Below are positions 3,257 to 55,308 of a stretch of DNA of 55,308 bases, piece by piece. Below the pieces are notes generated by a model. It saw nothing but the letters and a program-made list of their open reading frames with translations, had not been told where the DNA came from and ran no database searches. The DNA is taken from contig JBBISU010000019.1 of assembly GCA_037441225.1 (NCBI GenBank), forward strand, positions 1-55,308, read 5' to 3'. The stretch's first letter is position 1. Each line of letters opens with the position of its first letter. Made by a program: the position numbers and the translations under genes. Source of the DNA: Acidobacteriota bacterium (GTDB lineage Bacteria > Acidobacteriota > Thermoanaerobaculia > UBA2201).

Positions 3257-4182
3257 CTACTTTTTCACAATTTCTACTCTTCTGTTTTTTGCTTTTCCTT
3301 CTTCTGTTTTATTGTCAGCAATTGGTTTGGTTTGCCCCCATCCCTTTGATGAAAGGCGGTTTTTATCTATTCCTTTTGATATAATTGCATCCATTACTGC
3401 CTTTGCACGATTTTCTGAAAGTGTTTGATTGGATTGTGGAGTTACGACATTGTTTGTATGCCCTTCAAAGCTTATCTTTAATGTTGGATTCTCTTTCATC
3501 ATTTTTACATTTGTTCAATAATAGGTTGTGACTCTGGTTTTATCTCTGCTTTACCACTTTCAAAATTTATATATAATGCAATAAATCCATCTTTATTTAA
3601 AGCATCAAACATCTCATTTGCTTTAATCTCTTGCACCATCATTTCTTTTTCTGCAATTACCATATCATAGCCATCATCACTTAATTGAACATATACCCAA
3701 ATCTCTTTATCATTTTTTGCAAATTTAATAGTCGTTCCCCAATTAGTGCATCTATTTCCAAAAGGAATAGTGCCTCCATTTATATCATTTCCAGTATATT
3801 CATATTGTCCAGCACACCAACTCTGATATTCTCCTAAGATAACCCCGCCATTTTGTTTGCCTGCATTTTGAAAATTTCGCATAATTTGCAAACCTGATGG
3901 AGGTGTTGAGCCTTCTTTTATTTGATAATTAAATACCATTATTTTTCCTTCCACTACTTCAGATTTTATATTATTATCTTTTTTTGGATCTGGTTGTCCC
4001 ACTGGAAATTTCATAGAACCAAAATCAAGTTTTGCGCAACTGCCTAAATAATAGTTAGGCATTCTGTTAAACAATGGATGATCTTTGCATCCTTCTGCAT
4101 CTTCTTCTTGTGCAAAGGAAATGTACTGAATTGCAAAGACCAAAACAGCAAAAATTAAAACCTTTAAAGATATTTTTTTCAT
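3257..4182 (-). pseudogene. OmpA-family peptidoglycan-associated outer-membrane protein, split by a 1-nt frameshift at about 3503-3512
   Basis: ORF 3505..4182 has a signal peptide and ends FESGKAEIKPESQPIIEQM*. ORF 3257..3502 continues with KMMKENPTLKISFEGHTNNV..SNQTLSENRAKAV..NRRVEIV, the OmpA C-terminal-like domain. The two ORFs are in different frames, and the second frame is open upstream (..TNVKMMKENP), so one indel separates them. This could be real or an assembly error. Confidence 0.7.
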
Positions 4183-4234
4183 CCTCCTCCTTTTGCGTTA
4201 ATCAAATTGACGCTGAAATTTTTATGCCTTATTT

Positions 4235-4261
4235 ATTGTAGCATATTTCAATAATTGTCAA
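4235..4261 (-). promoter_or_regulatory. Sigma-70-type promoter for the OmpA-like gene (TTGACA, 15-nt spacer, extended -10 TGCTACAAT)
   Basis: Minus strand reads ttgacaattattgaaatatgctacaat about 55 nt upstream of the ATG at 4182, followed by SD aaaggaggagg. Confidence 0.4.
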
Positions 4262-4352
4262 ATGGTTTTTCCTAAACAATATCTTAAAATATTCTAATTA
4301 AAAATTGAAATAATTATCGGTAAATGCAATAAATATTCTGGAGGTTTGAAGT

Positions 4353-4786
4353 ATGGAAAACTCAGATTTTTTTGAAGAAGAAAATATACTAAAAAATATA
4401 GAAGAAAAGAATTATAAATAGGAAAATTGGGGATAGAATAAGAGGAAGGTTTGAAATTTACGATATATTAGAAGGAAGCATAGGTTTTGTTTTTTAGATA
4501 AGGCAAAAAAATATTTAATAAAATAATTAAGTTAAATCAAAAGGATGCAAATGTGAATTTCTTGTTAGAAGAGGCTTTCTTGGCTAAAAAACTTAGCGAC
4601 GAAGCAATTGAGGCATATAAAAAAGCAGTTGAGCTTGATCCAAAAAATGCAAATGCATTATACAATCTTGGCTTTGTTTTATTTTATGGAGGTTATGAAG
4701 ACGAGGCATGGGAAATATTTAGAAAAGCACTTAAATTAGCTCCAAACCATCTAGATGCATATTACATCTATACAGGTCAGCTTTGA
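4353..4786 (+). pseudogene. Remnant of a Ser/Thr protein kinase + TPR gene (internal deletion and frameshifts)
   Basis: SD ggagg + ATG 4353 gives a 22-aa ORF. Shifted frame 4426..4497 reads IGDRIRGRFEIYDILEGSIGFVF*, resembling the start of a kinase domain around the glycine-rich loop. ORF 4553..4786 (open from about 4528) is pure TPR (AIEAYKKAVELDPKNANALYNLG..). Confidence 0.4.
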
Positions 4787-4842: not shown

Positions 4843-5752
4843 ATGAGTATAATAGATTGCATTGGTAATACACCGCTTATAAGAATGGATAACATTAATC
4901 CAAACCCTCATATATTTTGCTCTATGGTAAATTTGAAGGCGCAAATCCAGGTGGTTCAGTTAAAGACAGGACTGCCCTTTATCTTATAAAAGAAGCAGAA
5001 GAAAAAAAATTGCTGACAAAAGATAAAATTATATTAGAACCAACTTCTAGAAATACTGGAATTGGACTTGCAATAATTGCATCTTCTAAGGGCTATAGAA
5101 TAAAACTTGTTATGCCAAAATGTGTAAGTTATGAGAGAAGAAAAATTCTGGAAGCCCTTGGAGCAGAACTTATCTTATCACCTGCAGAAGAAGGAACAGA
5201 TGGTGCTATAAAACTTGCCCATCAAATTTATAAAGAAGCACCTGAAAATTATTTTATGCCAAATCAATTTGATAATTCATCAAATGTAAAAGCCCATTAT
5301 GAGACAACAGGAAAGGAAATCTTAGAACAAACAAAAGGAGAAATAACACATTTTGTTGCTGGAATGGGGACAACGGGCACATTGATGGGTGTTAGTCAAA
5401 GGTTGAAAGAATATAACAAAGGTATAAAAATTATTGGTGTTGAACCCTTCCAGGGCATAGAATACAGGGACTTAAAAATATGAAGGAATCAATTGTCCCC
5501 AAAATATATGATCCTTCAAGAATAGACGAGAAATACAATGTAAAAGATGAGGATGCTTTTGACACAACAAGAAAACTGGCAACAAAGGAAGGTGTTTTTG
5601 TTGGGATGTCTTCTTGTGCTGCTGTCCATTGCGCCATAGAAATTGCCAGTGAATTAAAAAAAGGCGTAATAGTAGTTTTGCTTCCTGACAGAGGAGACAG
5701 ATACCTTTCAACTTCCCTTTTTATGAGTGTTTGCAGCAAATTTCCTCCTTAA
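4843..5752 (+). pseudogene. Cysteine synthase (CysK/CysM family, PLP-dependent), at least 2 frameshifts plus substitutions at conserved glycines
   Basis: ATG 4843 gives MSIIDCIGNTPLIRMDNINPNPHIF. A frame change then gives ..KFEGANPGGSVKDRTALYLI.. (4917..5483). A second frame change near 5445-5460 gives GHRIQGLKNMKESIVPKIYD..LLPDRGDRYLSTSLF (5480..5752). The conserved TSGNTG reads TSRNTG and GSSG reads MSSC. Confidence 0.8.
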
Positions 5753-10613: not shown

Positions 10614-11570
10614 CTACAGATAGCCATTTTCTTTCATCCAATCATCATTATAAAATTTGCTTAAATATCTGTTTCCATGGTCTGGTAAGATTACAACTAT
10701 ATTTTTTCCCGGATTTTCTTTTGCAACTTTTAAGCCAGCAAAAAGGGCAGCACCTGAGGAGCCCCCTGCAAAGATTCCTTCTTCTTTTGCAAGTTTTCTT
10801 GCCATTAAAAAGCCATCCCTGTCTTCCACTTGAATGAAATCATCTAAAACAGAAAAATCCATACACTTTACAAGGTAATCCTCACCTATTCCTTCTAATT
10901 TATAAACCTTTGGTTCAATTAATTTTCCTGTTTTAAAGTAAGGTGTAAAAACAGAGCCAATTGCATCAACTCCTATAACTTTTATTTTGCTGTTTTTTTC
11001 TTTTAAAAATTTTCCAGTCCCTGAAATTGTTCCACCAGTTCCAGCACCTGCAACAAAGATATCTATTTTTCCATCCATTTCTTCCCAGATTTCAGGCCCT
11101 AATGTCTTATAATAAGCTTCTATATTCCAGGGGTTGTTATATTGATCTATATAATAAGCATTTAATTCTTTTGCTAATTTTTTTGCAACAGAATAATAAC
11201 TTTCTTCTGATTCAGGTTGAACTGCTGTTTTACATACAACAACTTCTGCCCCATAAGCTTTTAACTGATTTATCTTTTCCTGGCTCATTTTATCAGGAAT
11301 TGTAAAGATTGATTTATAACCCTTAAGTTTTGAAATTAAAGCAACTGCTGCACCAGTATTTCCTGATGTATTTTCTACAATAACCATTCCTGGCTTTAAG
11401 AAGCCTTCTTCTTCTGCTCTTTTTATAATGTGCAAAGCCATCCTGTCTTTAATTGAACCAGTAGGGTTTAGATATTCACACTTTAAAAAAATATTTGCTT
11501 CTGCCTTTATATTTTTTAAAGGAACTAAGGGGGTATTACCAATAGAAGAAACTAAACTTTCAAATTTCAT
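10614..11570 (-). CDS. Cysteine synthase / cystathionine-beta-synthase-family PLP enzyme (intact)
   Basis: IGNTPLVPL, NPTGSIKDR (PLP lysine), TSGNTGAAVA, GGSSGAA. Start placed at the internal Met (MKFESLVSSIGNTPL) rather than the 20-codon hydrophobic extension to 11630. Confidence 0.85.
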   Translation of the reverse strand: MKFESLVSSIGNTPLVPLKNIKAEANIFLKCEYLNPTGSIKDRMALHIIKRAEEEGFLKPGMVIVENTSGNTGAAVALISKLKGYKSIFTIPDKMSQEKINQLKAYGAEVVVCKTAVQPESEESYYSVAKKLAKELNAYYIDQYNNPWNIEAYYKTLGPEIWEEMDGKIDIFVAGAGTGGTISGTGKFLKEKNSKIKVIGVDAIGSVFTPYFKTGKLIEPKVYKLEGIGEDYLVKCMDFSVLDDFIQVEDRDGFLMARKLAKEEGIFAGGSSGAALFAGLKVAKENPGKNIVVILPDHGNRYLSKFYNDDWMKENGYL

Positions 11571-11674
11571 AAAAGAGATTTTACTATTTAAAAAAATTAA
11601 TGTCAAATTATAAAGAAAATATTTAAACAAAGATATTTTTGATTTTTTTTAGTTTTTATTTTATTATAGTTTAA

Positions 11675-23261: not shown

Positions 23262-24052
23262 AAAAAATTATTATTACTATTTTAATTTTTTCTCTCTATT
23301 CTTTTGCTCAGGACTGGAAAAAGATTGGTTCAATTTTTGGTGGCTTTAACAGGGAATTTACAGAAGAGGAAGAAAAAGAAATAGGGAGAGAAATTGCAGC
23401 AAAACTTTTAGGAATATATAAATTGTATAAAAATGATGAAATGACAAAATATATAAATTTAGTTGGGAAATATGTTGCTTTATCTTCTCCTGAACCAAAA
23501 AGAGAATATATATTTGCAATCCTTGACACTGATACAATAAATGCTTATTCTTGTCCCGGAGGGTATATTTTTGTTACCTTAGGACTTTTAAAAATTTTAT
23601 CTTCTGAGGCAGAGCTTGCAACAATCTTATCACATGAAATTGCCCATATAACTGAAAAACACATACTTAAAGAAATTAAAAGAGCAAATATTTTAGGAGA
23701 AGGAACTGAAATTTTAGCAGAGAAATCAATTGGAGGAAAAGGGATAGGAAAAGACCTTGCAAAGAAATTATCAAAAAAAGCAATGGAAACCCTTTTGAAA
23801 AAAGGGCTTGCAAAAAAGGATGAATATAAGGCAGATGAAATTGGCTTTGAGATTTCTTGTAAAGCAGGTTATTCATCAAAGGAATATTTAGAATTTTTAA
23901 AAAAATTAGAAAAAATAACAAAGGAACCAGGTATGGCAGTTTTAATAAAAACTCATCCAACTCCAGAGAATCGCTTTAAGGAACTAATAAAGAAGGATTG
24001 TTCTTCTGATATAATATTAAAAGAAAGATTTAAGGAAAGAACAAATTTATGA
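23258..24052 (+). CDS. M48-family zinc metallopeptidase (secreted/periplasmic)
   Basis: Signal peptide, HEIAHITEKH (HExxH), and downstream E in ADEIGFE. Confidence 0.8.
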   Translation: MKKIIITILIFSLYSFAQDWKKIGSIFGGFNREFTEEEEKEIGREIAAKLLGIYKLYKNDEMTKYINLVGKYVALSSPEPKREYIFAILDTDTINAYSCPGGYIFVTLGLLKILSSEAELATILSHEIAHITEKHILKEIKRANILGEGTEILAEKSIGGKGIGKDLAKKLSKKAMETLLKKGLAKKDEYKADEIGFEISCKAGYSSKEYLEFLKKLEKITKEPGMAVLIKTHPTPENRFKELIKKDCSSDIILKERFKERTNL

Positions 24053-26040
24053 AAAATTTTTGTGTTTTTATTTTAATTTTAATTTCAAGTTTTTCTTTTA
24101 GTCAAAATGTAGTTTTAATTACCCTTGACACAACAAGGCAGGATTCTCTCTCTTGTTATGGACAAAAGGGAATAAAAACAGAAAATTTAGACAAATTTGC
24201 AGAAAAATCGTATATTTTCTTAAATGCTTTTTCTCCAGTTCCACAGACACTTCCAGCCCATTGTACAATCTTTACTGGAACCTATCCCTTTGAGCATAAA
24301 GTAAGGGATAATTTAATAAATTTCTTGCCAGATGAAGCATTGACAATAACAGAAATATTAAAAGAGAAAGGTTATTCAACTGGTGCAGTTATATCCTCAG
24401 CTGTATTAAATCACAGATTTGGTTTAAAACAAGGCTTTGATTTTTATGATGATAAAATAGAAAAGAAAACTGGTGAAATAAAAGCAGAAGAAACAACAAA
24501 AAAAGCTTTGGAAATTTTAAAAAAATTAAAAGAACCATATTTCTTATGGGTCCATTATTATGATCCCCACCATCCTTATATGCCTCCAAAAGAAATAAAA
24601 GCGCCATCAAATTATTTAGGTGAAGTTTTATTTATGGATCAAAATTTAGGTAAATTATTTGAAAGTTTGAATCTCAATAATACCTTAATTATTATTGCAG
24701 GAGACCATGGGGAGTCCTTAGGTGAGCATAAAGAAAAAGAACATGCTGCCTTGCTTTATAATCCAGCAATTTCAATCCCTCTTTTATTACATTATCCTGG
24801 TCAAACAAAAAAGGAAGAGAGCAAAGAAAATGTTTCTCTGGTTTCAATTTTCCCTACAATAACTGAATTTTTGAAAATTGATATAAAAACTAATTATCCA
24901 TCTCTTTTGAAATCAGTAAACCCATCAATTTATCTGGAAACATATTATCCCTTTTTTAGTTTTCACTGGTCTCCCTTGAGGGGTATTATAAAAGAAAATC
25001 ATAAGCTAATACTTTCTTCAAGTGATGAAGAATTATATGACATTTCAAAAGACAAAAAGGAAGAGAAAAATTTAATAAAAAGTAAAGAAAAAATTGCCAA
25101 AAAATTAAAGGAAGAATTTTTTAAATTAACTACAGAGAAGGACTTTATGCCACTTCAAAGCAAAGGACATTCAGTCCCTGATGAATTAAAAAAACAACTC
25201 CAATCCTTAGGGTATATTGATGGCTCTTTTTTAGATCCAAGTGAAGCTAAACAAAAACTCCCAAATCCAAGGGATTTAGTTGATATTATTGATTTTTTAG
25301 TTCATAAAGGAAGGGAATTAATAATATCAAAGGATGCTGATTCAGTTATAAAAAATGTAAAAGAGATTTTAAAAAGAGATCCCAAAAACTTTCTTGCAAT
25401 GAATTTGGCAGGCGAGGCATATTGGATTAAAGAGGACTATAAAAGAGCAAAAGAAATTTTTGAAGCTGCCTTGAAAATTGCAGAGCATTCTTATCAGCTG
25501 CATGGAAATTACGGCTATTCTTTATTTAAACTTGGAGATCTTGAAGGTGCTAAAAAGGAATATGAAAGAGCATTAGAATTAAATGAAGATTACCCAGAGG
25601 GCTATGCTTATTATTCTGAATATTATTTATCAAAAAAGGATGTAAGAAATGCTTCCGACTTGCTTGAAAAAGCATTAAAAAAAGAATTAATTCATCCAAG
25701 GATTTATTATAACTATGGCTTAATTAAATTAGAAAAAAAAGATTTAAAAGGAGCAATAAGTTATTTTGAAAAAGCTTATGAAATAGATAAAAATTTCTTT
25801 GAATGTATTGGAAATTTAGCTTTTTGTTATTTCCAGTTGGGTGATAAAGAAAAAGCCTGGCAACATCTACAAGAAGGATTAAAAATAAATCCTAAAGATT
25901 TTAATATTTTAAAGGCATCAATAACAGTTGCAATAGAATTAAACAAAATTAAGGAAGCAGAAGAACTAGCAAAAAAATTAATTGAACTTTACCCTAACTC
26001 ACCTGAGGCACAAAGTTTAAAACCATTTTTTAAAAAATAA
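24049..26040 (+). CDS. Sulfatase-like alkaline-phosphatase-superfamily enzyme fused to C-terminal TPR repeats (paralog 1)
   Basis: Signal peptide, VVLITLDTTRQDSL metal site, SPVPQTLPAHCTIFTG nucleophile motif, GDHGESLGEH, and about 250 aa of TPR at the C-terminus. Confidence 0.85.
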   Translation: MKNFCVFILILISSFSFSQNVVLITLDTTRQDSLSCYGQKGIKTENLDKFAEKSYIFLNAFSPVPQTLPAHCTIFTGTYPFEHKVRDNLINFLPDEALTITEILKEKGYSTGAVISSAVLNHRFGLKQGFDFYDDKIEKKTGEIKAEETTKKALEILKKLKEPYFLWVHYYDPHHPYMPPKEIKAPSNYLGEVLFMDQNLGKLFESLNLNNTLIIIAGDHGESLGEHKEKEHAALLYNPAISIPLLLHYPGQTKKEESKENVSLVSIFPTITEFLKIDIKTNYPSLLKSVNPSIYLETYYPFFSFHWSPLRGIIKENHKLILSSSDEELYDISKDKKEEKNLIKSKEKIAKKLKEEFFKLTTEKDFMPLQSKGHSVPDELKKQLQSLGYIDGSFLDPSEAKQKLPNPRDLVDIIDFLVHKGRELIISKDADSVIKNVKEILKRDPKNFLAMNLAGEAYWIKEDYKRAKEIFEAALKIAEHSYQLHGNYGYSLFKLGDLEGAKKEYERALELNEDYPEGYAYYSEYYLSKKDVRNASDLLEKALKKELIHPRIYYNYGLIKLEKKDLKGAISYFEKAYEIDKNFFECIGNLAFCYFQLGDKEKAWQHLQEGLKINPKDFNILKASITVAIELNKIKEAEELAKKLIELYPNSPEAQSLKPFFKK

Positions 26041-37223: not shown

Positions 37224-38396
37224 ATGGTTTTATTTAACTATGCAACCAGAGAAGTAACAGCAAAAATTGTCTATTATGGTCCCGGACTTTGTGGGAAAAC
37301 TACAAATTTAAAATTCATATACGATTCCCTCCCATCAAATTCAAAATCTAAGATGATCTCTCTTGCAACAAATCAAGATAGGACATTATTTTTTGATTTT
37401 TTACCTTTGGAACTTGGAACAATTAAAGGTATGAATGTGCGCCTCCAATTATACACAGTGCCAGGGCAGGTCTATTATAATTCTACAAGGCAACTTGTCT
37501 TAAAAGGGGCAGATGGAGTTATTTTTGTTGCTGATTCACAAGAATTTATGGAGGATGCAAATATTGAATCCTGGAATAATTTGAAAGAAAATTTATTAGC
37601 CCATGGGATAATTTTGAAAAATTTTCCCCACATAATTCAATACAATAAAAGAGATCTTGCAAATATTTTACCTGTTGAATATTTGGATACTAAATTAAAC
37701 GAATATAAAGTTCCTTACTTTGAATCAATTGCAACAACTGGCTATAATGTAGAAGCAACATTGAAAGAGATGACAAAAATAGTTCTTCAAGATTTATTAA
37801 AGAAATATAATATTTCGCCACAGGATGCAATTTTGTCAGAAGAAATTATTTTAATCCCCCAAGAGGTTCAAAAAAAAGCAACAATAACAGTAGGAGGTTC
37901 TATTATGGGTATAGAAGATGAAACATTAAATTCACTATGGGAAAAGGAAGAAGAAAAAGAGACCTTTTCTTTTGAAGGAGAAGAATATGAATTTAAGGAA
38001 ATAAAACAAGAAGAAATTTCTTTTGAAGAAAAAGAACCTTTCCAGGATATTTTTGAAAAAAAAGAAGAAAAGTTACCTTTAGAAAAGCCCCTTGAAGAAG
38101 AAAAAGTTTTATTTGAAAAGCCAATTGAAGAAAAAGAATTGATAATTGGAAAAGATTTAATTGAAAGAAAGGAAGTTAGCCAACAAATTAAAACTGAAGA
38201 AAGTGAGTTAATAATTGAAAGAAATTCTGTTGAAGAACCAATTCCTTTATCCTTTGAAAAAATTGAAAAACAATTGAATATTCCAAAAGAAATTAGGCAA
38301 AAGGACATCTATATTACAATTTCTTTATCAAAAGAAGAGATTGAAAATATTGAAAACTTAGAATTAAATATAAAATTAAAAATAAAAGTAGAATAA
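37224..38396 (+). CDS. mglA: MglA-like Ras-superfamily GTPase with a ~195-aa acidic C-terminal extension
   Basis: The first ~195 aa align by eye along the full length of Myxococcus MglA: KIVYYGPGLCGKTTNL, DRTLFFDFLPL, LYTVPGQVYY, IQYNKRDL. They are followed by an E/K-rich tail (..EKPLEEEKVLFEKPIEEKE..). Confidence 0.85.
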   Translation: MVLFNYATREVTAKIVYYGPGLCGKTTNLKFIYDSLPSNSKSKMISLATNQDRTLFFDFLPLELGTIKGMNVRLQLYTVPGQVYYNSTRQLVLKGADGVIFVADSQEFMEDANIESWNNLKENLLAHGIILKNFPHIIQYNKRDLANILPVEYLDTKLNEYKVPYFESIATTGYNVEATLKEMTKIVLQDLLKKYNISPQDAILSEEIILIPQEVQKKATITVGGSIMGIEDETLNSLWEKEEEKETFSFEGEEYEFKEIKQEEISFEEKEPFQDIFEKKEEKLPLEKPLEEEKVLFEKPIEEKELIIGKDLIERKEVSQQIKTEESELIIERNSVEEPIPLSFEKIEKQLNIPKEIRQKDIYITISLSKEEIENIENLELNIKLKIKVE

Positions 38397-42499: not shown

Positions 42500-45400
42500 T
42501 TATTGACCAATTACATAAATTGCATCACCTGTGTAATTATCAACAACAGAACCATAAACAAGGACAGATCCATTTCCAGAAAGCACCTTCACCTTTGCAT
42601 ATCCATTATTTACATTGCCAATATTGAAGATTTCAAAAATCCTATTTATCTGCTTAAACTCATTTCCAGATAAATTAAACATACCACTTGCAAGTTCATT
42701 TCCATCAGAAGAATATAATTTTATTTCAACTGTTGCAGGGCTACCAGTGATTTCAGAAATGCCAATGTTTGTTCTGAAAGATTCATTTGATGCAAGGTGC
42801 AATATGTATTGTTCTTGATTAATTCCTATTGCTCCCTGGATAAGTGTAGATGGTACAAATTGTCCATAGGTCATATTTTCTTCCATTGATGTATAAATTC
42901 TTGATGTAGCAAGGACTCCTTCTGGGGCAATAATCTGGACTTCCCCTACATTATCAGTTAATCCAAAAAATTGTTCGATTAAATCATTTGTATAAATTAT
43001 ATTTTTCCCTTCTACTTCAACTGTCTTAGTATAAAGGTTTCCTTTTTCAACAAAATTAATGGTTACATCTTGTGCCTCTTCCTTTGGATTAAATATCCTT
43101 AAATCACTCTTCCAGAAAGTTCCTCTATCTCCTTCCTTATTAGCTGCAACGGCAATTGATTGGTTTTGCAAATTCCCTTCTTCTTTTAAAAGAGGAACAA
43201 AGATTGCATCATTTGAGTAATTATCCACAACAGAAGCATAAGCAAACAAGGCACCATCTCCATTAATTTTAATTTCAGCCCTTGCAGATGATTTAAAACC
43301 AGAGATACCTAAATTATTAAAGATATCATTTACTTGTAAAAATCCTTTTGGTTGTAAATTATAACTACCGCTTCCTAAGAGATTATTTTCATTATCATAA
43401 ATATTAATTAAAGCTTCCACAGGTTCTCCCTTCACTTCCATAAATCCAACATTTGTCCTAAAAGAAATAGAATTTATTAAGTGGAATATATGACCTACTT
43501 CATTCTGCCTTACAAAATAACTACTATCTTTTCCAATAGCACTGCTTACATCATAGCCCTTTACAAACTGCCCATAAGTTCCTAATTCAGTCCTATTATA
43601 AGTCCTTGCAGTAGAAATTGAGTTCCCATTGGATACAATTTGTATTCCACCTACTATATGGCTTAAGCCAAAGGTATTTTTTACTATGTCATTGAAAATT
43701 GCAAGTTTCTTTGGTTCAATTGTTCCTTTGAACTGATATGGTGTTTGAGTTCCATCTGTATCAGGTGGTATAAAGTACATTGTATAACTTATTGTTTTTT
43801 CTGTTGGATTAAAGATTTGAACATCTGTTTTCCAGAGTGAAGACCTGGCACCCTCTGCACTTGCAACAGCTGGAATTATTGTATTATATTCCTCAACAGG
43901 TGGAGCACCTGCTGTTGTAAAATGCCAAGCTTCACTGGAAGCATTTCCACAACTATTTACTGCATTTATAACCCAGTAATAAGTTGTACCTTCTTCTAAG
44001 TTTGAAACAACAAAAGATGTTCCAGTTGTTGTTCCTATAAGGTCTAAATAACCAACCATTTTGCCTAAATAAACCTCATAATAATCTGCACCAGAACCAG
44101 ACCAGACCAACTCAATTGGTGGAATTAAATCAGTTGAGCCATTTGGAGGAGATATGAGTTGTGGAGGATCTGGTGGAATGCAACCTGTCTCTGTTGTAAA
44201 AGACCATGTTGAAGAGGAAGTAGTTCCACAAGCATTAACTGCTTCTACCCTCCAGTAATAAGTTGTACTTTGAGAAAGGGATGGAATTGTAAACTGGCTT
44301 GATAATATATTTGATTGATAAAGAAGAGGTGTTGGGTTTGTACCAAAATATAAATTATAAGATGTAGCACCTGATGAATCCTGCCAATCAAGTAAAACAT
44401 TTGCTGTAGGTATACCAGTTGTTCCATTTGGAGGAGAAATTAGATTAAAAGCACCTGGTACTGGGCAAACCGTTGTAAAAGACCAAACTGCCGATGAGGT
44501 TGTTCCACAAATATTTACTGCATCCACATACCAATAATAAGTAGTATTCTGTGAAAGGGATGGTACTGTTATTTGACTTGTGGCAAGTCCGACTTGATAA
44601 AGAGGTGGGGGAATTGTTTGGCCTAAATAGAAATTATAAGATGTAGCGCCAGCTGAATCATCCCAGTCAAATAAGACATTTGTTAAAGGAACATTTGTTG
44701 AAAGATCTGGAGGTGTAATTAAATTAAAGGGATCTGGCAATGGACAGGAACAAACATTACATACAGGAGTTGTTACGGAAATATAAACATTGTCTATACG
44801 CCAGTACCAATCCCAAGCAGGTGTGAAAAAATGAAATTTTATTTGAATTGTTTGCCCAATGTAAGGTGTTAAATCAATTGTAACATGGTGCCCTGTTGAA
44901 GGATCATCTATTGTTTCATACCTTAAATTTGTCCAAGTTGCACCACCATCTATTGAAATATCTGTCCAAGCATCTCCATTTCCTAAATAGTCCTGGAAAT
45001 TGCAGTCATAATCAAGTATTGCACTTGCATAGCCAGAAAGATTAATTAGTGGAGTTATCATAGAAGTATCCATTCCACCACCACAGGCATCTGAATCTGC
45101 ATCTGCTGCTTCACCTGCACCACCTGTATCATTTGTAGCACCCCAGTATGCAGTTGACCGCCATACATCACAAGACCAACCAGGTTGTTCATCTACAATT
45201 GTCCAACCAAGAGGTGGCCAACTTTCAAATTCTTCAGAAAGAAGGTATATAACAGGACCAGAACCACCTACATTTATTTGAAATGTATCAACCCAGCTTC
45301 CTTCATTTGAAGTTATGTTTAAAGTAAAATCAATTGTTGTCCCACAGGGAATTGTTTCACTTAAGTAAACCTCAAAAGGAGTTGCAGGTGGTGCAAAAGA

Positions 45401-48325
45401 GCCAACAGGAATATCACCATAACTTGCATTTGAAACAATTATCGTAACAAGAGGATTTGTTGTGCTTAAAGATGCATTTATACCTGTTGAATGTGCAGTA
45501 CCTGTATTTTGTATAATTGGACTGATATCTAAGTATTCACCAGGGTCTGCATTTGAATCTCCATCACCTGGACCACCTGAAAGACAATCATCTACAAAAG
45601 AAGTTGACTGGATTGAAAGGTTTGGTGTACCAGGTGTACAAATATTGCATACTGGGGAGGATGTAACTGCAAAAATTGATATATCATCAATGTGGCAGTC
45701 ATTTCCATAAGCACTTACTCCAAGTATTCCAATCATAACATTTGCCTGCCCTGCATAAGCAGATAGATCAACGCTATGCTCTGTCCATTGTACCGTTCCA
45801 TCATACCTTGAAATTGGTGCTCCTACATCTGCCCAACTTGTTCCTCCATCTGTTGAAACTTGAACCTGAACATAATCATTTGAAGTATTATATTCAATGT
45901 CATGGTACATCCAAAAATAAATATTTATAGAACCATAAGTAGAAAAATCAAAAGGAACATTGTATTGGAGGCGTGCACTCTTTCCAGATATTACATGCCA
46001 GGAATTAAACCATACAAGATTTGGAGCAGAATGGGAAGCTGTACCTGAAGGATGATGCGTTCCTGCATTTGTTGCCCAGGCAGGTGTTGTCCCACCTGGA
46101 TTGTTTACCACAACAGAGGACCAGTTTGCAGGAAGCGCTGGTGGAGCAATGCCATCAAAATTCTCATAAAATATTCTTGTAAGGGTTGAACCAACAGACA
46201 ATTGGAACATATCTGCCCAGCCACCTTCATTTGAAGAAATACTTAAATTTAAATCAATTGTTGTACCACAGGGCATTGTGGAATCTAAATGTATAAGATA
46301 ACCAGTTATAGAAGTTCCAGTTCCAGAAGCAGGAATATCTGGATAATTTGAAGAATTATTTAAAACAGTCACACCTGGAGTTGTGCTTGATAGGATTGCA
46401 GAAACACCAGTTGCTCCATCTGTTCCACTGTTTCTCAAAGTAACAAAAATAGTTATATCTTCACCTGGGTCAATTACACTATCCCCATCTCCAATACCAC
46501 CTGTCAAGCAATCATCTGTGTATATTGAACTATCATATTCAAGATTTGGTATTGAAACAGCAGCTGTTGTAAAAGACCATTCTGCGCCAGTCATAGTACC
46601 TGAACTATTTTTTGCAATAACATACCAATAATAGGTAGTTCCATTTGCTAGTCCATTTGCAGTGTATTGCGAAGAAGTTAAATTGCTTTGAAATAAGGGC
46701 GGGGAGGGGGTTGTTCCAAAATATAAATCATAGTAAATTGCATAAGGCGCATCTTCCCAGTCAATTAAAAGACCATTTGTTGGCTGGTCAATAGAGCCAT
46801 CAGGTGGTGCAATGTTATTAAATGCCCCAGGGGGTGGTGGTCCTACACAAGAAACAATTGATATGCCATCAACTTCTGCATCCCCTTGAAAAGCACCAAC
46901 AAGTGTTGTTGAGCCATTTGTAAGGTTTACAGTCCTGAGTTCACCTCTGCTCAATGTAAGATTATAAGCAGCCATATACATAATTTGATTGTCTACATCA
47001 AAATCCATTCCTTGTGCATAATTTGCATTAAAACCAACAGGACCTAAAAGAGTTGGAACTGCTGTTGCTGCATCAATTTTATATAAATTATCATTTCCTA
47101 TGTCAAGTGTATATAAATTTCCTGAAGAATCTGCTGCCAAATTTATAGCACAACTAACACCTGACACTTGCCCAACTTCTGTTGTTGCTCCATTTGCTGG
47201 ATTTAATGTATAAAGATAAGTATTACTTCCACAGTCAGTTGAAATTGCATAGACAGTTCCATTTGCATGTTCTGCAAGACCTGTAAAATAAGGTGCTGCA
47301 GGGTTTGGAGTTGAACTTCCTAAAACTGTTTTAGAAGCATCTGTTGTGCTGTAAGCAACAAATTGATTTGTATTGTCATCTATTGCATATATTCTGCTGT
47401 AATCCCCACCTATAAAATCTGCTCCGAAAGGGTAATCTGAACCAAAACTTCCAACTACATTAAATGTCCCTGGATTTGAAAGGTCAAACCAGACAAGGTT
47501 TGAATTATCCAAATCAAATCCATAAGCAACAACAGAACAAGCAGAAGTAGTGGTTGTAAAAGACCAAACAGGTCCTGTGGCAGGAGGGCACGTATTTAAA
47601 GTGTTATCTGCTACCACATACCAGAAATACTGTGTATTTCCTGAAAGCCCTGTAACATCATACTGACTTACAGAAGTTGTTCCATAATAAGGGGGTGGGT
47701 TTGTTGTTCCAAAATATAAATCATAAGTATTTGCACCAGTTGAATCATCCCAGTTTAAAGTCAAAGTTGTTGGTTGGTTTATTGCCCCATCTGCAGGATT
47801 AGGATTTGAAGGAAATGAAATTTGTGGATTTGAAGGACAGGAAACTGTTAAGTTTAAATCAGAATCATTTCCTGGTTGATCACTTTCTGTTGTTGAAGAC
47901 CATAAAACATTTCGCAGTTGAAAAGAAATTGGAGTTCCATCACAAACATCTGTTAGAGTATCAAAAGTAAAAGATGCCAAAAGTTGCGAACCAGAACCAG
48001 AAGGAATTGGAAGACCTGCAGCAGCAAAATTTATCCAGTTTGGAAAAACTCCAACACTTTCCGTCCAACCATTAGTTGTAAGTATTGGTCCCATAGTGTA
48101 ACCTGAATATGAAAAAATAGTACTATCAAAATAAAGACCTCCACCTGCGCCATCATTACTCCATTGAACTGCTACCAAATCATCAGGATTATCAACCCAT
48201 ACTTCAACATTTATTTGGTTTCCACAGGTAGGGTTATTAGCCACAAGTGAAAAACTTCGCGCTGCAGAAAGCACTACCAGAGATGAGGATAAAAAAACAA
48301 GGAAAAAAAGAATTAATTTTTTCAT
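42500..48325 (-). CDS. Giant (1941 aa) secreted modular surface protein
   Basis: Signal peptide (aa 1-21) and a cohesin-like beta-sandwich (aa ~24-163). Five Fn3-like modules each end W(S/H)FTT (aa 172-258, 499-587, 1195-1285, 1288-1378, 1383-1471). A propeller-like segment spans aa 262-492. Two copies of a [DDCL.GG.GDGDS..DPGE...PCGTTID..L.I.SNEG.W] module plus a jelly-roll/MAM-like domain lie at aa 592-887 and 899-1186. Two ~230-aa C-terminal repeats lie at aa 1480-1712 and 1722-1941. Confidence 0.9.
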   Translation of the reverse strand: MKKLILFFLVFLSSSLVVLSAARSFSLVANNPTCGNQINVEVWVDNPDDLVAVQWSNDGAGGGLYFDSTIFSYSGYTMGPILTTNGWTESVGVFPNWINFAAAGLPIPSGSGSQLLASFTFDTLTDVCDGTPISFQLRNVLWSSTTESDQPGNDSDLNLTVSCPSNPQISFPSNPNPADGAINQPTTLTLNWDDSTGANTYDLYFGTTNPPPYYGTTSVSQYDVTGLSGNTQYFWYVVADNTLNTCPPATGPVWSFTTTTSACSVVAYGFDLDNSNLVWFDLSNPGTFNVVGSFGSDYPFGADFIGGDYSRIYAIDDNTNQFVAYSTTDASKTVLGSSTPNPAAPYFTGLAEHANGTVYAISTDCGSNTYLYTLNPANGATTEVGQVSGVSCAINLAADSSGNLYTLDIGNDNLYKIDAATAVPTLLGPVGFNANYAQGMDFDVDNQIMYMAAYNLTLSRGELRTVNLTNGSTTLVGAFQGDAEVDGISIVSCVGPPPPGAFNNIAPPDGSIDQPTNGLLIDWEDAPYAIYYDLYFGTTPSPPLFQSNLTSSQYTANGLANGTTYYWYVIAKNSSGTMTGAEWSFTTAAVSIPNLEYDSSIYTDDCLTGGIGDGDSVIDPGEDITIFVTLRNSGTDGATGVSAILSSTTPGVTVLNNSSNYPDIPASGTGTSITGYLIHLDSTMPCGTTIDLNLSISSNEGGWADMFQLSVGSTLTRIFYENFDGIAPPALPANWSSVVVNNPGGTTPAWATNAGTHHPSGTASHSAPNLVWFNSWHVISGKSARLQYNVPFDFSTYGSINIYFWMYHDIEYNTSNDYVQVQVSTDGGTSWADVGAPISRYDGTVQWTEHSVDLSAYAGQANVMIGILGVSAYGNDCHIDDISIFAVTSSPVCNICTPGTPNLSIQSTSFVDDCLSGGPGDGDSNADPGEYLDISPIIQNTGTAHSTGINASLSTTNPLVTIIVSNASYGDIPVGSFAPPATPFEVYLSETIPCGTTIDFTLNITSNEGSWVDTFQINVGGSGPVIYLLSEEFESWPPLGWTIVDEQPGWSCDVWRSTAYWGATNDTGGAGEAADADSDACGGGMDTSMITPLINLSGYASAILDYDCNFQDYLGNGDAWTDISIDGGATWTNLRYETIDDPSTGHHVTIDLTPYIGQTIQIKFHFFTPAWDWYWRIDNVYISVTTPVCNVCSCPLPDPFNLITPPDLSTNVPLTNVLFDWDDSAGATSYNFYLGQTIPPPLYQVGLATSQITVPSLSQNTTYYWYVDAVNICGTTSSAVWSFTTVCPVPGAFNLISPPNGTTGIPTANVLLDWQDSSGATSYNLYFGTNPTPLLYQSNILSSQFTIPSLSQSTTYYWRVEAVNACGTTSSSTWSFTTETGCIPPDPPQLISPPNGSTDLIPPIELVWSGSGADYYEVYLGKMVGYLDLIGTTTGTSFVVSNLEEGTTYYWVINAVNSCGNASSEAWHFTTAGAPPVEEYNTIIPAVASAEGARSSLWKTDVQIFNPTEKTISYTMYFIPPDTDGTQTPYQFKGTIEPKKLAIFNDIVKNTFGLSHIVGGIQIVSNGNSISTARTYNRTELGTYGQFVKGYDVSSAIGKDSSYFVRQNEVGHIFHLINSISFRTNVGFMEVKGEPVEALINIYDNENNLLGSGSYNLQPKGFLQVNDIFNNLGISGFKSSARAEIKINGDGALFAYASVVDNYSNDAIFVPLLKEEGNLQNQSIAVAANKEGDRGTFWKSDLRIFNPKEEAQDVTINFVEKGNLYTKTVEVEGKNIIYTNDLIEQFFGLTDNVGEVQIIAPEGVLATSRIYTSMEENMTYGQFVPSTLIQGAIGINQEQYILHLASNESFRTNIGISEITGSPATVEIKLYSSDGNELASGMFNLSGNEFKQINRIFEIFNIGNVNNGYAKVKVLSGNGSVLVYGSVVDNYTGDAIYVIGQ

Positions 48326-50138: not shown

Positions 50139-50997
50139 AAATACCTTTTAAAAGCTTAATCTCCCTGTTATGAAGTTTAAAAATCTTTTGGAAAAAACCA
50201 CTTTCCGATGCCTCAATAAATTTTAATTTTTCTTTTTCCAAATATTTACAAATTGAATTAAAGAGCATTGGACTGCTTATAATTGAAGAAAGCAATGATT
50301 TTCCTTTTTCTTTATCTTCAATTAAAGAAATATCAATTGGGCTTAAAATTGGAATTTCTGGATTTTTCAAATTTTTCCATAAATCTTCATTCTTTTCTAA
50401 TTCTTTTGAAACTTCTCTTAAAATTGGTGTATGGATAGGCCAGGGAGAAGGTAACATTTTTAAAGAAAAAGCTTTATCTTTTAAAAAATTGTAAACTTCT
50501 TCAATATCTTCTTCTTTCCCTCCTATTGTATAAGACATTGGATGGTTTATAGAAGAAAAATAAATGTTTTTTAAATTTATTTTTGCTTCTTCTAAGGGAT
50601 AACCAGAGACATAAAGCAGTTTACCTTTTAAGTTTAATTTATTTGCTATATCATAATTAAATTTTAATATTTTTATTACATCTTCAAAAGGAAGGATTTC
50701 TGCCAAAGCAATTGAAGGGAAAACACCTAAACTGTAAGGAACTAAAATTTTTATCTTATATTTTTCTTTTAATGCAAGGCCTAAAGAATAAGCATACCAG
50801 CAAATTATTGGCTGGGAGTATTTGATATCATAAATTTCTTCAGAACTATTTATAATTATTTCTTTTAGATCAAACCCCCAGATTTTTTCAGTAATATTTA
50901 AGATTTCAAGAGAAAAGGGCAATTTATTAAGGAGTACTTTTCCAAACCCAATCTCTTCTGCCCCCTGCCCTGGAAGAAAAAATATTATTTCTTGCAC
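50128..50997 (-). CDS. Divergent FabD-like acyltransferase (malonyl-CoA:ACP transacylase fold)
   Basis: FFLPGQGAE (compare FPGQGSQ), YSQPII (compare QTQPAL), VPYSLGV in place of GHSLGE, and WPIHTPIL in place of VPSHCALM. Confidence 0.65.
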   Translation of the reverse strand: MQEIIFFLPGQGAEEIGFGKVLLNKLPFSLEILNITEKIWGFDLKEIIINSSEEIYDIKYSQPIICWYAYSLGLALKEKYKIKILVPYSLGVFPSIALAEILPFEDVIKILKFNYDIANKLNLKGKLLYVSGYPLEEAKINLKNIYFSSINHPMSYTIGGKEEDIEEVYNFLKDKAFSLKMLPSPWPIHTPILREVSKELEKNEDLWKNLKNPEIPILSPIDISLIEDKEKGKSLLSSIISSPMLFNSICKYLEKEKLKFIEASESGFFQKIFKLHNREIKLLKGIYEI

Positions 50998-51179
50998 TTT
51001 ATAAAAAATTCTATAGATCTATTATATGTTCTTTCATCCTTTGGTGAAAAAAAACAGCCAGGGATTTCTCCATTTCTTCTATGATAAAGGACACATTCAC
51101 AACACAAACCCTTCCTTGGACAGGGCTCATAAGTACAAGTGCAAATTTTTAAGTTTTTTTCTTTATTGCATTCTGCCAT
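50985..51179 (-). CDS. Small cysteine-rich cytoplasmic protein (DUF6485-like, from memory)
   Basis: 64 aa with 8 Cys: CNKEKNLKICTCTYEPCPRKGLCCECVLYHRRNGEIPGCFF. Overlaps both flanking genes (17 nt and 13 nt). Confidence 0.6.
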   Translation of the reverse strand: MAECNKEKNLKICTCTYEPCPRKGLCCECVLYHRRNGEIPGCFFSPKDERTYNRSIEFFIKCKK

Positions 51180-53127
51180 AAAGCTCCTCCAGATTTATTT
51201 TTTCTCCTCTTTCAATTTTATCTATTTTTTCCTTTATTTTATTACATATATTACTTTTTTGACAAAAATTATATGCTCTATATAAATAAATTAAACTTTC
51301 ATCTTTTTTCCCTTCTAATATATATAAAATAAGACCCAAATTGTAATTTGCTTCTGTGTTATTTGGATAAACTTTAAGAACTTGCTTATAATAATTTGCT
51401 GCTACCTTTAAATTTTCTTTTTTTATTGAAACCCTTCCAAGTGATAAAAGGAATTCAGGGTTTATTGGATCCATCTTGTAGCATTTATGATAAAGAAAAA
51501 AACTTTCATCATACTTTTTTTCTTCTTCTCTTATTTTTGCCACTTCAAAAAATAAAAAGGGATCCTCTATTTGGTTTTCTTCTGCTCTTTTTTGTAAATT
51601 TATAATTTCCTCTTTTTTTCCTTTTTTAGAATAAATTTTTGAAAGTTCCCCATATGCTTCCCTTAACCTTGGATTTTTTTCAATACAAAATTTTAATATT
51701 TCTTCTGCTTCATTAAATAAATTATTTGCAATCAATGCTTGTGCATATCTTAATTTTGTTACAACATCACTGGATCGCAAATAATAAAGCTTCTTAAAGG
51801 TTTCAAGCCCTTTCTTATTTTCACCAATTGACAAATACAATTTACCTAAGGCAGATAAAACTTCTCCATGCTGAGGAAACTCTTTTAAAATAGAATTTAA
51901 AATTTCAACTGCTTTTTTGTAATCTTTAAATTCAAGTTCCTCATAAGCTTCTTTTAATTTTTTTTCTGCTAAAACACCTTTTTCAGGGTCTTTTAAATTT
52001 TCTCCTTTTTTTGGCATCAAATAACCAAGGGATTTCAAAATTTTTTCACTTTCTTTTGGGAACTCATCCAAATTATCAGGGAAAACCTTTTCTTTTAAAA
52101 CTTTTAACATCTCTTTTACCTTATCTCTCTTTTCCTTAGATACATCTTTTTCTTCTTTTGGATCTTTTTTCAAATCAAAGAGTTTAAAATTTTTATCTCC
52201 ATATAAAATTAGTTTATAATCTTTAAAAATCACTGCCTTTGCATCTTGAAAACCAAAGACCTCTCTCCCATAAATTGAAGAAGAAATTACTGGTTTTTCT
52301 TCCAATTTGCTTAAAATTTCTTTTAAACTTCTTTCTTCAAAAAAATAACTATAAATTATTTTATAAATCTCTTCAAAAGAAATCCTTTTTGAAAATTTTG
52401 CCTTTTTTATTTCAGGATTTATTAAAAGGCAAGGGACTTTTATTGCCCCTTCATACAAAAGAACACCATGTTCTAATTCACCATGCTCACCTAACAATTC
52501 CCCATGGTCACCTATTATCAAAGTTATTGTATTTTCTGGCAAAGTTTTAAATAATTCACTAACACAAAAATCAGTGTAAGCAATTTCTCCATCATAAGGA
52601 TTTTCAAAATTTTTCCTGAAATTTTCGGGGGGTATATAAGGGCTATGGGGATCAAAAAAATGGATCCACAAAAAAAATGGTTCTTTCAATTCCTTATTTT
52701 TTTCTTTAAATAAATTTAATGTATCTTCACATCTCCTTTCATTATTCATATTATCTTCATAAAAATCAAAACCAGATGATATCCCAAAGACCCTATCCAA
52801 AATTGAAGAAGAAACAAAACCATAAGTATTATAATTTTTTTCCTTAAATATTAATGGAAGATAATTTTTATTTGCTTTAAAAAACTGACCATTTAAAAAT
52901 ATTTTATGTTGAAAGGGCTCAACACCAGTAAAAAGTGAAATATGTGCAGGGAGTGTTAATGGAACAGGTGAATAAACATTTTCAAAAACAATTCCTTCCT
53001 TTGAAATTTCCATCAAATTTGGCGTTGTCTTTAAATCTTGGTTTGTCAAAGTTGTATGGTCTGCTCTTGTTGTGTCAAGGGTAAGGATTAATAAATTTTT
53101 TATTGAAAATATTAAAAAGAAAAGAAT
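51163..53127 (-). CDS. Sulfatase-like alkaline-phosphatase-superfamily enzyme fused to C-terminal TPR repeats (paralog 2); probable non-canonical ATT start
   Basis: SPVPLTLPAHISLFTG, GDHGELLGEH and C-terminal TPRs. The track start (TTG 53049) cuts off the conserved in-frame NLLILTLDTTRADH metal site. The frame is open to 53142 and has no ATG/GTG/TTG there, but AGGAG (53135..53139) lies 7 nt before ATT 53127. Confidence 0.7.
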   Translation of the reverse strand: MLFFLIFSIKNLLILTLDTTRADHTTLTNQDLKTTPNLMEISKEGIVFENVYSPVPLTLPAHISLFTGVEPFQHKIFLNGQFFKANKNYLPLIFKEKNYNTYGFVSSSILDRVFGISSGFDFYEDNMNNERRCEDTLNLFKEKNKELKEPFFLWIHFFDPHSPYIPPENFRKNFENPYDGEIAYTDFCVSELFKTLPENTITLIIGDHGELLGEHGELEHGVLLYEGAIKVPCLLINPEIKKAKFSKRISFEEIYKIIYSYFFEERSLKEILSKLEEKPVISSSIYGREVFGFQDAKAVIFKDYKLILYGDKNFKLFDLKKDPKEEKDVSKEKRDKVKEMLKVLKEKVFPDNLDEFPKESEKILKSLGYLMPKKGENLKDPEKGVLAEKKLKEAYEELEFKDYKKAVEILNSILKEFPQHGEVLSALGKLYLSIGENKKGLETFKKLYYLRSSDVVTKLRYAQALIANNLFNEAEEILKFCIEKNPRLREAYGELSKIYSKKGKKEEIINLQKRAEENQIEDPFLFFEVAKIREEEKKYDESFFLYHKCYKMDPINPEFLLSLGRVSIKKENLKVAANYYKQVLKVYPNNTEANYNLGLILYILEGKKDESLIYLYRAYNFCQKSNICNKIKEKIDKIERGEKINLEELYGRMQ

Positions 53128-54299: not shown

Positions 54300-54693
54300 A
54301 AGAAATATTTTAACATAAAACTTCAATAATTTATAAAGTTTGATCCCTTCTTTCTTTCTTTAACTTTTAAAAGTTGTGATTTTGAATTTTTTTTTAAATC
54401 CCATTGTTATTTTTTAAAAAATCTTTGTTCTTAAATTTTTTCTTAAACCAAAAATGTCATTAAAATTTAATTATTAATAGAACCCTCCTTTTTTTCTTAT
54501 AATAAAAAACACCAAAGATTCAGAAATAAAAGAAAAAAGAAGCCAAACCTTGTGGTAAATTACAACATGCTGGAAATACAATAAAAATTTTTTTCTGCAG
54601 GGGTTGAGATTGCTTAAGCCCGGTATTTTTCAAGTCGTGCAAGGTTTCCAATAATTATATTACAAATCCTGCTCTCATTAATCCCTTTTCCCT

Positions 54694-54951
54694 TCATTTC
54701 TTTATAATTATTGGAGAAATAACTATAAATATCAAAACTATTAAAAATAATATCAAATATGTTTTCCTAACTTTCAATAAAAAATCTGCTTTTATGATTT
54801 TTTTCCATCTCAAAAAATAAAGAAAAATAATCACAAAAAATATTGAAATCAAAATATAAATTGGCAATATATAATTCATACTAATTTTCAATAATAAAAA
54901 TAGAAAGATAAATAATAAAATAACTGTGATATTTGATGACAAATTCTTCAT
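54694..54951 (-). CDS. Small three-TM membrane protein; candidate immunity protein for the upstream Rhs tip
   Basis: 85 aa with three hydrophobic segments. SD aggagg lies 6 nt before the ATG, and the gene starts 21 nt after the Rhs stop codon. Confidence 0.5.
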   Translation of the reverse strand: MKNLSSNITVILLFIFLFLLLKISMNYILPIYILISIFFVIIFLYFLRWKKIIKADFLLKVRKTYLILFLIVLIFIVISPIIIKK

Positions 54952-54972: not shown

Positions 54973-55308
54973 TTAAAAAGGTCCAGATGGTATGCATAAC
55001 CATGCTAAACCTTCATAACATGCCTGAACAGCTAAACATTCCAGCCAATCCTGTCCTGAACAACAATCACAAGGAAATCCTGTGCCATCCCAACAACCTC
55101 CACAATCATCGCATAAACCTTCAAGACATTCATTAATATCATTTAAAGGCCCTCCATTAGATAACATCATTCCAATAATTGGCTTGCCATAAAGACCTAT
55201 TGGATCTGAATAAGTTAAAGGTAGATTATATGAATAAATATAAAAATTTTGCCAAAGAGAATAAAATAAAATATCTTTATTTATAAACCTTCCTAAGTGT
55301 GAATTATA
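54973..55308 (-). CDS. 3' end of an Rhs/YD-repeat polymorphic toxin gene (partial; continues beyond the window) with a cysteine-rich C-terminal tip
   Basis: The minus-strand frame is open from the window edge: YNSHLGRFINKDILFYSLWQNFYIYSYNLPLTYSDPIGL (the GRF..D...N.Y.Y..N.P....DP.GL end of the Rhs-associated core; DPIGL = 55192..55206). A 72-aa tip follows. The track's 65-aa ORF is only its tail. Confidence 0.75.
   Translation of the reverse strand, partial: YNSHLGRFINKDILFYSLWQNFYIYSYNLPLTYSDPIGLYGKPIIGMMLSNGGPLNDINECLEGLCDDCGGCWDGTGFPCDCCSGQDWLECLAVQACYEGLAWLCIPSGPF

Follow-up and report, generated by a model that had tools for sequence, protein, structure and literature searches.

At the right edge of a 55,308-nucleotide (nt) stretch of an Acidobacteriota contig (JBBISU010000019.1; "the window" below means this whole stretch), the minus strand carries the end of an Rhs-type gene whose last 72 codons specify a small, acidic and exceptionally cysteine-rich module, followed closely by a gene-sized open reading frame (ORF) for a small membrane protein. 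We read this segment as the tip at the C-terminus of a polymorphic toxin of the Rhs family, or of an orphan cassette, carrying a putative non-enzymatic, disulfide-stapled peptide toxin that acts on the envelope or membrane and is paired with a candidate membrane immunity protein. We give this reading as a whole an even chance of being correct. The features on which it builds, delimited in part by comparison with two relatives of the tip (P0001 and P0003), are as follows.

55192–55308, minus strand: last 39 residues of the RHS repeat-associated core (YNSHLGRFINKD...YSDPIGL), from translation and a match to TIGR03696
55192–55206, minus strand: DPIGL, the Rhs C-terminal autoproteolysis motif, read in the sequence; the same alignment column holds DPFGM or DPFGQ in related cassettes
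55141–55191, minus strand: Gly/Pro-rich linker, tip residues 1–17 (YGKPIIGMMLSNGGPLN), with a predicted local distance difference test (pLDDT) score <50 at residues 1–14
54976–55140, minus strand: Cys-rich acidic mini-domain, tip residues 18–72, ending LAWLCIPSGPF, from the alignment with P0001 and P0003 and from AlphaFold
54973–54975, minus strand: TAA stop of the Rhs ORF, kept in position in P0001
54958–54964, minus strand: Shine-Dalgarno site AAGGAGG, 6 nt 5′ of the ATG of the downstream ORF, read in the sequence
54694–54951, minus strand: hydrophobic ORF of 85 amino acids (aa; ORF85), candidate immunity protein, from translation, Kyte-Doolittle hydropathy and similarity to the P0001 partner

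Minus-strand translation of 54973–55308 yielded YNSHLGRFINKDILFYSLWQNFYIYSYNLPLTYSDPIGL, followed by the 72 tip residues quoted in the first-pass annotation of this DNA and then TAA. The Rhs ORF is open to the right window edge (55308), and the visible protein upstream of the tip amounts to 39 residues. These match positions 38–76 of the 76 positions of TIGR03696 (Rhs_assc_core; E 8.3e-5) with 23 bits, a score that falls under the curated cut-off of 32.5 bits because the domain is truncated by the window edge. The GRFxxKD...DPxGL motif with its upstream Asp reads GRFINKD...YSDPIGL; the underlying pattern GRF...D...DPxG occurs a single time in the six frames of the window, and the arrangement GRFxxxD...DPxG(L) is kept in P0001 and in a further Rhs end on the same metagenomic contig (L001 43–552). 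The label "Rhs", as we apply it here, rests on this partial profile match together with the motif. Autoproteolysis at a DPxGL-type motif is a property of Rhs/TcC proteins and is the basis for assigning a putative cleavage role to DPIGL. Being open at the window edge, the visible ORF end may belong to a full-length Rhs protein or to an orphan C-terminal cassette alike.

The tip spans the 72 codons after DPIGL and divides into a 17-residue Gly/Pro linker and an acidic module of ~55 residues. Its cysteines, at positions 22, 27, 30, 33, 41, 43, 44, 52, 58 and 66, place 10 Cys within 45 residues, exactly as the first-pass annotation had reported. No other stop-free 45-residue stretch, in any of the six frames, holds as many Cys (the runner-up has 8), and the binomial P is ~3e-12 against a Cys background of 0.8%, the frequency across 22 window ORFs. 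The acidic character noted earlier is likewise evident (D+E = 10 vs K+R = 1; net charge about −9). The tip further contains 12 Gly, no Arg and no His; its description as lysine-free holds for the Cys-rich module only, since the whole tip has one Lys, in the YGKP of the linker. A second Cys-dense ORF, unrelated to the Rhs tip, lies elsewhere in the window (50985–51179, minus strand; 64 aa, 8 Cys in 45 residues). It is flanked by genes for a sulfatase-TPR protein and an acyltransferase and matches Pfam DUF6485 (E 7.5e-8).

We used the tip as the query of an exhaustive phmmer scan of 1.84 billion protein cluster representatives, which returned three matches, P0001, P0002 and P0003; P0002 was rejected as a low-complexity repeat artefact. 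P0001 (164 aa, E 4e-14) is 63% identical across tip residues 11–72. Its Rhs core end (...RYYNASLGRFMQKD...SDPFGM) leads into a Gly/Pro-rich linker and the same module, and the protein terminates in ...LAWLCIPSAPF-stop, so that the ending LCIPSxPF-stop is common to both tips. P0003 (122 aa, E 7e-4), a more distant relative, is cut by its contig end and has a different, Ala-rich, non-Rhs N-terminus, with the pattern CLE.C...CW...C..CPGQ.W.E...YE...C as in the window tip. Alignment of the three sequences revealed 18 invariant columns, including 6 Cys, CLE, CW, GQ and YE, and the window linker aligned with equally Gly/Pro-rich linkers of P0001 and P0003. Eight of the Cys in the module are conserved in the family and two are extra in the window tip.

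Further searches recovered little beyond these sequences. A word-indexed homology search with the tip gave no match, and the same kind of search with a profile of the window tip, P0001 and P0003 (A1) retrieved P0003 only. Scans with A1 found no match in genome contigs and none in viral contigs, and in metagenome contigs they found the P0001 sequence only, recovered again as L002 and L003. All clusters of the tip family are singletons. The module family is thus real yet extremely rare in public data. On the second metagenomic contig, L003 (FWWM01088635.1), the tip is identical to that of P0001, and the contig diverges within the downstream small transmembrane ORF into sequence that looks higher in G+C, which suggests a chimeric assembly or a rearrangement.

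Comparison with P0001 also bears on whether the tip is read in the correct frame. Between the two tips, the proportion of synonymous differences (pS) is 0.77, which is saturated, and that of nonsynonymous differences (pN) is 0.37; the stop of P0001 lies at the position homologous to the window TAA. Judged from these sequences, the tip is maintained protein-coding sequence under purifying selection, and the saturated synonymous sites together with the retained stop therefore argue that it is no frameshift product. The possibility raised at the outset, that the cysteine pattern is a frameshift artefact and the true toxin domain is encoded further on, was accordingly ruled out by the stop conserved in the relative and by the nature of the next ORF, a transmembrane protein with its own Shine-Dalgarno site. 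The other possibility then raised, a known trailing or pre-toxin domain, found no match.

The base composition of the tip has another explanation than the one first offered. Its DNA is indeed richer in raw G+C (0.398) than the visible core end (0.214) and the downstream ORF (0.167), the window as a whole standing at 0.295. By codon position, however, the tip values are 0.49 (first), 0.51 (second) and 0.19 (third), and the third-position value (GC3) lies within the range of 0.175–0.23 given by 15 long window genes. The G+C expected from the amino acids of the tip and the codon usage of the window is 0.422±0.016, against 0.398 observed (z = −1.5). The excess is fully accounted for by Gly, Cys, Pro, Ala and Asp codons, as the lower G+C of the neighbours reflects Ile, Leu, Phe and Lys codons. 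Because the excess is a matter of amino-acid make-up, it provides no evidence for a recombined foreign cassette. Window and P0001 are 56% identical over the tip and 58% over the core end, an equal divergence without any trace of recent exchange at DPxGL between the two lineages. We therefore abandon the proposed cassette of foreign composition: GC3 is native, G+C is as the amino acids predict, and no breakpoint signal appears at DPxGL. A giant protein of 1941 aa rich in FN3, Ig and DUF4394 domains (42500–48325, minus strand) also exceeds the window in G+C (0.37), and there too the excess is confined to codon positions 1 and 2 (GC3 0.18).

Searches against reference libraries left the tip without an assignment. 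Pfam (also at E<=10 with the tip alone), NCBIfam and PADLOC gave nothing beyond the Rhs core end, the A1 profile had no significant match among Protein Data Bank (PDB) sequences, and Foldseek against PDB (models of both the window and P0001 tips) and BFVD gave nothing below E = 2. The tip is a genuine Rhs-type C-terminal tip of a class matched by no library searched, which agrees with the earlier impression of an unrecognised class. AlphaFold2, run with the three-sequence alignment, predicted a helix (residues 15–30), a short hairpin (~33–42, bridge 33/42) and a second helix (49–63), with a mean pLDDT of 68 and block means of 70–84 over residues 21–70. The model of the P0001 tip showed the same helix, beta-hairpin, helix topology (pLDDT 67).

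The subthreshold matches raise the question of whether the module is a known fold in disguise, either an EGF-like calcium-binding (cbEGF) adhesion or signalling module or the degenerate core of a secreted phospholipase A2 (PLA2). The top PDB sequence matches of the A1 profile were Notch cbEGF domains (E 0.03–0.9), the window tip looks cbEGF-like in its DINEC...C...GGC.D...F.C.C, and snake-venom PLA2s recurred in the Foldseek results (E 3.9–9.9, TM score ~0.25). None of these values is significant (E 0.03 for sequence; E >3 and TM score 0.25 for Foldseek). Pfam EGF_CA is not matched at E<=10; DINEC reads NIGEC in P0001 and YYDC in P0003, the position of the sixth EGF Cys is missing in the relatives, and AlphaFold gives two long helices instead of an EGF fold. 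A cbEGF domain is characterised by D-x-[DN]-E-C, six Cys in the disulfide topology 1-3, 2-4, 5-6 and an all-beta fold. A secreted PLA2 has a Ca2+ loop and a catalytic His-Asp dyad (CCxxHDxC); the dyad requires a His, and the window tip has none at all. Both identifications were effectively rejected, and the probability that we leave to them is negligible.

The ORF downstream of the tip supplies the second element of the proposed pair. ORF85 begins 21 nt past the Rhs stop and encodes a Cys-free, basic (K+R 11 vs D+E 1), almost wholly hydrophobic protein with about three predicted transmembrane helices and Kyte-Doolittle 19-residue means of up to 3.2. An ORF of 85 codons is very unlikely to arise by chance in DNA of 17% G+C (estimate ~1e-4), and ORF85 is a credible gene. 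It has no match in Pfam, NCBIfam or PADLOC. Its first two helices share 35% identity with ORF54, the 54-aa ORF downstream of P0001, at a pairwise E of 0.002, a similarity that could be compositional. The membrane-embedded protein that the first-pass annotation had named as immunity candidate is small and tightly coupled to the tip, with a Shine-Dalgarno site, a 21-nt gap and a like arrangement after the P0001 tip, and we regard ORF85 as a credible immunity candidate. The protein is essentially without a soluble domain and would therefore have to act within the membrane.

Beyond ORF85, a spacer of 367 nt (54327–54693) separates it from a gene for a FadL/TodX-like outer-membrane protein. Local G+C in this region peaks at ~0.38 (54550–54700). 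A terminator scan found none that was convincing in the spacer, and Rfam at the gathering threshold gave no match anywhere in the window.

The genomic surroundings of the relatives provide a wider view of such cassettes. P0001 lies on a 44-kb contig (L001) from a metagenome of hot-spring type, within an array of Rhs C-terminal pieces, and 4 nt after it comes ORF54, which has two predicted transmembrane segments. At the contig edge of the same array, L001 43–552 encodes an Rhs end in which DPFGQ precedes a tip of 104 residues with 14 Cys; an IS4-type transposase follows. A degenerate Rhs-like piece (L001 3240–3884) has a CGNG...CDDG Cys-rich tail with 8 Cys and a weak DUF4215 match (E 0.015); the end of this tail, ...WKICVPITGPY, resembles the ...WLCIPSGPF of the window, and a signal-peptide protein (3901–4545) follows. 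Searches with the core ends identified further orphan cassettes. In P0005 (L004 10001–10348, assembly ERZ4756919), a 51-residue tip with 10 Cys precedes a 73-aa ORF with two transmembrane segments, and in a contig-edge gene of L006 (2–331), a 10-Cys tail precedes a signal-peptide protein (350–916). The tip of P0004 is just a few residues long. A preprint traces a contig of assembly ERZ4756919 to the Diamante hot spring metagenome.

Exhaustive profile comparison (hmmsearch --max) found no homology of the A1 family to the tips of L001 43–552, L001 3240–3884, P0005 or L006, and these sibling Cys-rich tips therefore appear to form families separate from that of the window. Short Cys-rich tips of several unrelated families thus recur on related Rhs cassettes, each preceding a small transmembrane or signal-peptide protein except in L001 43–552, where the IS4-type transposase follows. 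Membrane or exported partners of the window and sibling tips therefore point to a target in the envelope.

The same surroundings could be taken to mean that the segment is a non-functional remnant, either an Rhs C-terminal fragment that is orphaned or in decay or a non-toxic filler peptide, with an unrelated ORF downstream. P0001, P0005 and P0004, the closest relatives, are all short and orphaned, in arrays that include an IS4-type transposase; the P0004 tip is very short, and no Rhs shell is visible in the window. Decay accords poorly, however, with 56–63% protein identity despite saturated synonymous sites and with a conserved stop; the module moreover occurs in P0003, a compositionally different, Ala-rich protein, ORF85 has a strong Shine-Dalgarno site, and the pairing of a tip with a small transmembrane ORF recurs. 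We consider a remnant improbable.

The P0005 cassette also bears on the idea that the tip is the precursor of a ribosomally synthesized and post-translationally modified peptide (RiPP), whose cysteines a radical-SAM enzyme would convert to thioethers in the manner of SCIFF-type peptides. The high Cys density of a short C-terminal peptide would suit such a precursor, and in L004 a radical-SAM gene does follow the P0005 cassette at a distance of ~300 bp. That gene, however, runs on the other strand and belongs to a housekeeping cluster that includes FtsK. Neither a radical-SAM gene nor another maturase gene adjoins the window tip or P0001, and NCBIfam gave no SCIFF-type match. This proposal was rejected as well, and we attach hardly any probability to it.

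The cysteines may form disulfides or bind metal. The window tip has 10 Cys, and P0001 and P0003 have 8 each; C43 and C52 are present in the window tip only, and C30 and C58 are both missing in P0003. We favor disulfides over metal ligands because the Cys are gained and lost in pairs and all counts are even. Metal binding by the Cys would instead imply an Fe-S domain or a small domain resembling a Zn(Cys)4 knuckle or ribbon, one that folds in the reducing cytoplasm and poisons an intracellular target by binding. The spacing invites this view: CxxCxxC (C27, C30, C33) and CxxC (C41, C44) lie on either side of the predicted beta-hairpin, the window tip and P0001 share C30xxC33...C41xxC44, the eight conserved Cys could give two Cys4 sites, and a PHD finger is among the weak PDB sequence matches (E 0.77). 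In P0003, however, C30 is replaced by Ser, so CxxCxxC is not family-wide; no His is conserved, and no zinc-finger Pfam model is matched even at E<=10. The paired changes in Cys number also speak against metal, as do the partners: that of the window tip is purely membrane-embedded, without a soluble domain to neutralise a cytoplasmic binder, and those of sibling tips carry signal peptides. A metal-binding domain is, in our estimate, unlikely, though deserving of more weight than a remnant.

Under the disulfide-stapled toxin reading, the tip would be released by Rhs autoproteolysis at DPIGL|Y and delivered to a neighbouring cell. There it would fold as a cysteine-stapled helix, beta-hairpin, helix mini-protein, its disulfides forming in the oxidising periplasm. 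Its action would be non-catalytic, because ~55 residues are too few for an enzyme and no His, Ser, Lys or Arg is conserved; it would disturb a component of the inner membrane or envelope, through an ion leak or the blockage of a membrane protein. ORF85 would shield the producer by meeting the toxin, or the target of the toxin, within the membrane. The Rhs cage would, in effect, deliver a bacteriocin-like peptide. Published precedents exist for single steps of this scheme: small non-catalytic Rhs tips are on record (PMC3482391), incoming type VI secretion system (T6SS) effectors can require DsbA of the target cell (PMC5792426), and in models of gallocin A the peptides are helical hairpins stabilised by disulfides, while the small immunity peptide forms a similar hairpin (PMC10100652).

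Several observations weigh against this scheme. The maximum 19-residue Kyte-Doolittle mean of the tip is 1.2, too low for a transmembrane hairpin, and the tip is strongly acidic, unlike most membrane-active peptides. The CxxC-x7-9-CxxC arrangement around the predicted beta-hairpin also suits a pair of zinc knuckles, and the paired gain and loss of Cys rests on three sequences and is weak evidence. AlphaFold confidence is moderate, from an alignment three sequences deep. The Rhs shell and N-terminus, which would indicate the secretion route and target compartment, fall beyond the window, and library scans of window proteins revealed no T6SS genes in the 55 kb. The closest relatives are orphan fragments that are perhaps unexpressed, and the ORF85–ORF54 similarity may be compositional.

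Comparison with described systems indicates what is familiar in this locus and what is not. Like this locus, Rhs/YD-repeat polymorphic toxin cassettes (Zhang et al. 2012, PMC3482391) join a core end with GRFxxKD...DPxGL to a variable tip, with a small ORF tightly linked to it, and relatives of the window cassette likewise occur as orphan cassettes in arrays. The window tip, however, falls in none of the toxin families described there; it has ~55 structured residues, 8–10 Cys in its family and no plausible catalytic residues, and the shell and N-terminus of its gene are not visible.

The first-pass annotation had set the tip against an expectation that Rhs tips are enzymes or pore formers of 100–300 aa. 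This premise proved too narrow, as two very small types have been described (PMC3482391). Tox-WTIP is a small, hydrophobic two-helix tip on Rhs and PVC toxins, a predicted pore former whose signature comprises two membrane-spanning helices with RxxR in helix 1 and Wx[ST]IP in helix 2 (PMC3482391). The window tip is similarly very small, probably non-enzymatic and predicted to be two-helical, and the W-L-C-I-P at the end of its second helix partly resembles Wx[ST]IP. In contrast to Tox-WTIP, it is Cys-rich and acidic and has neither RxxR nor any Arg. We therefore rejected Tox-WTIP membership: the tip has no transmembrane segment (maximum hydropathy mean as above), its WLCIP is a partial match only, and no Pfam model is matched at E<=10. 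Ntox38, the 33–43-aa non-catalytic tip of actinobacterial type VII secretion system (T7SS) toxins (PMC3482391), demonstrates that a tiny non-enzymatic tip with a dedicated immunity protein exists among polymorphic toxins. It differs in its predicted three-stranded fold, lack of a Cys pattern and WXG/T7SS context, and has no sequence relationship to the window tip.

Outside the polymorphic toxins, the class IIb bacteriocins of the gallocin A type (PMC10100652) resemble the predicted pair in combining a short two-helix peptide held by a cystine with a small immunity peptide (GIP). They are, however, free peptides of Gram-positive bacteria exported by Sec or ABC systems, with one disulfide and few charges, whereas the window tip is fused to an Rhs core, has 4–5 putative disulfides and a net charge of about −9, and shows no homology to them. 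The periplasm-acting T6SS effectors Ssp2 and Ssp4 of Serratia, which DsbA of the target cell activates (PMC5792426), set a precedent for delivered toxins that gain disulfides in the periplasm of the victim, although neither is an Rhs tip or Cys-dense, these effectors being peptidoglycan hydrolases or larger proteins. The architecture of the window locus is standard, with an Rhs core end, a tip and a candidate immunity gene. What sets the locus apart is not the kind of system but its payload family, which is undescribed and unusual in type.

Other genes of the window show occasional links to the contigs that carry related cassettes. A 223-residue stretch of the giant protein at 42500–48325 is 30% identical (E 1e-13) to a 237-aa ORF in the L001 array (1881–2594). 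The window also encodes two paralogous fusions of a sulfatase with TPR repeats (24049–26040, plus strand; 51163–53049, minus strand), to which a sulfatase gene adjoining the related Rhs cassettes of L006 is weakly similar; L004 has a sulfatase gene too, according to Pfam. Elsewhere, a 188-aa ORF (4917–5483, plus strand) covers only positions 24–192 of the 295 positions of the PALP (pyridoxal-phosphate enzyme) model and is perhaps a truncated copy; the full-length PALP gene at 10614–11630 (minus strand) is 5 kb away. A 390-aa protein (37224–38396, plus strand) contains a Ras-family small GTPase domain (E 1.7e-8), and its gene adjoins one for a FabH-like ketoacyl synthase.

Uncharacterised tips are common in polymorphic toxins, and to our knowledge the entries for Rhs and other polymorphic toxins in catalogues are nearly all enzymes. 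If correct, the interpretation of the window tip as a disulfide-stapled toxin would add a non-enzymatic, peptide-like payload class to Rhs toxins, in the form of a compact pair, a toxin of 72 aa with an immunity protein of 85 aa. The unrelated Cys-rich tips on sibling cassettes, from metagenomes of hot-spring type, suggest a strategy shared across the lineage, with possible advantages in thermostability through cystines or in activation by the Dsb system of the target. More tentatively, and with less confidence than we place in the toxin reading itself, we propose that a low-G+C, probably thermophilic bacterial lineage may use Rhs cages for a diversifying arsenal of short, unrelated, disulfide-rich peptides (8–14 Cys in 50–100 residues), each with a tiny membrane or exported immunity protein. 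The window tip would represent one such family, folding only in the oxidising periplasm of the victim and acting non-catalytically on its membrane. With such an arsenal, bacteria would have an equivalent of the repertoires of venom peptides or bacteriocins in place of the usual enzymatic tips.

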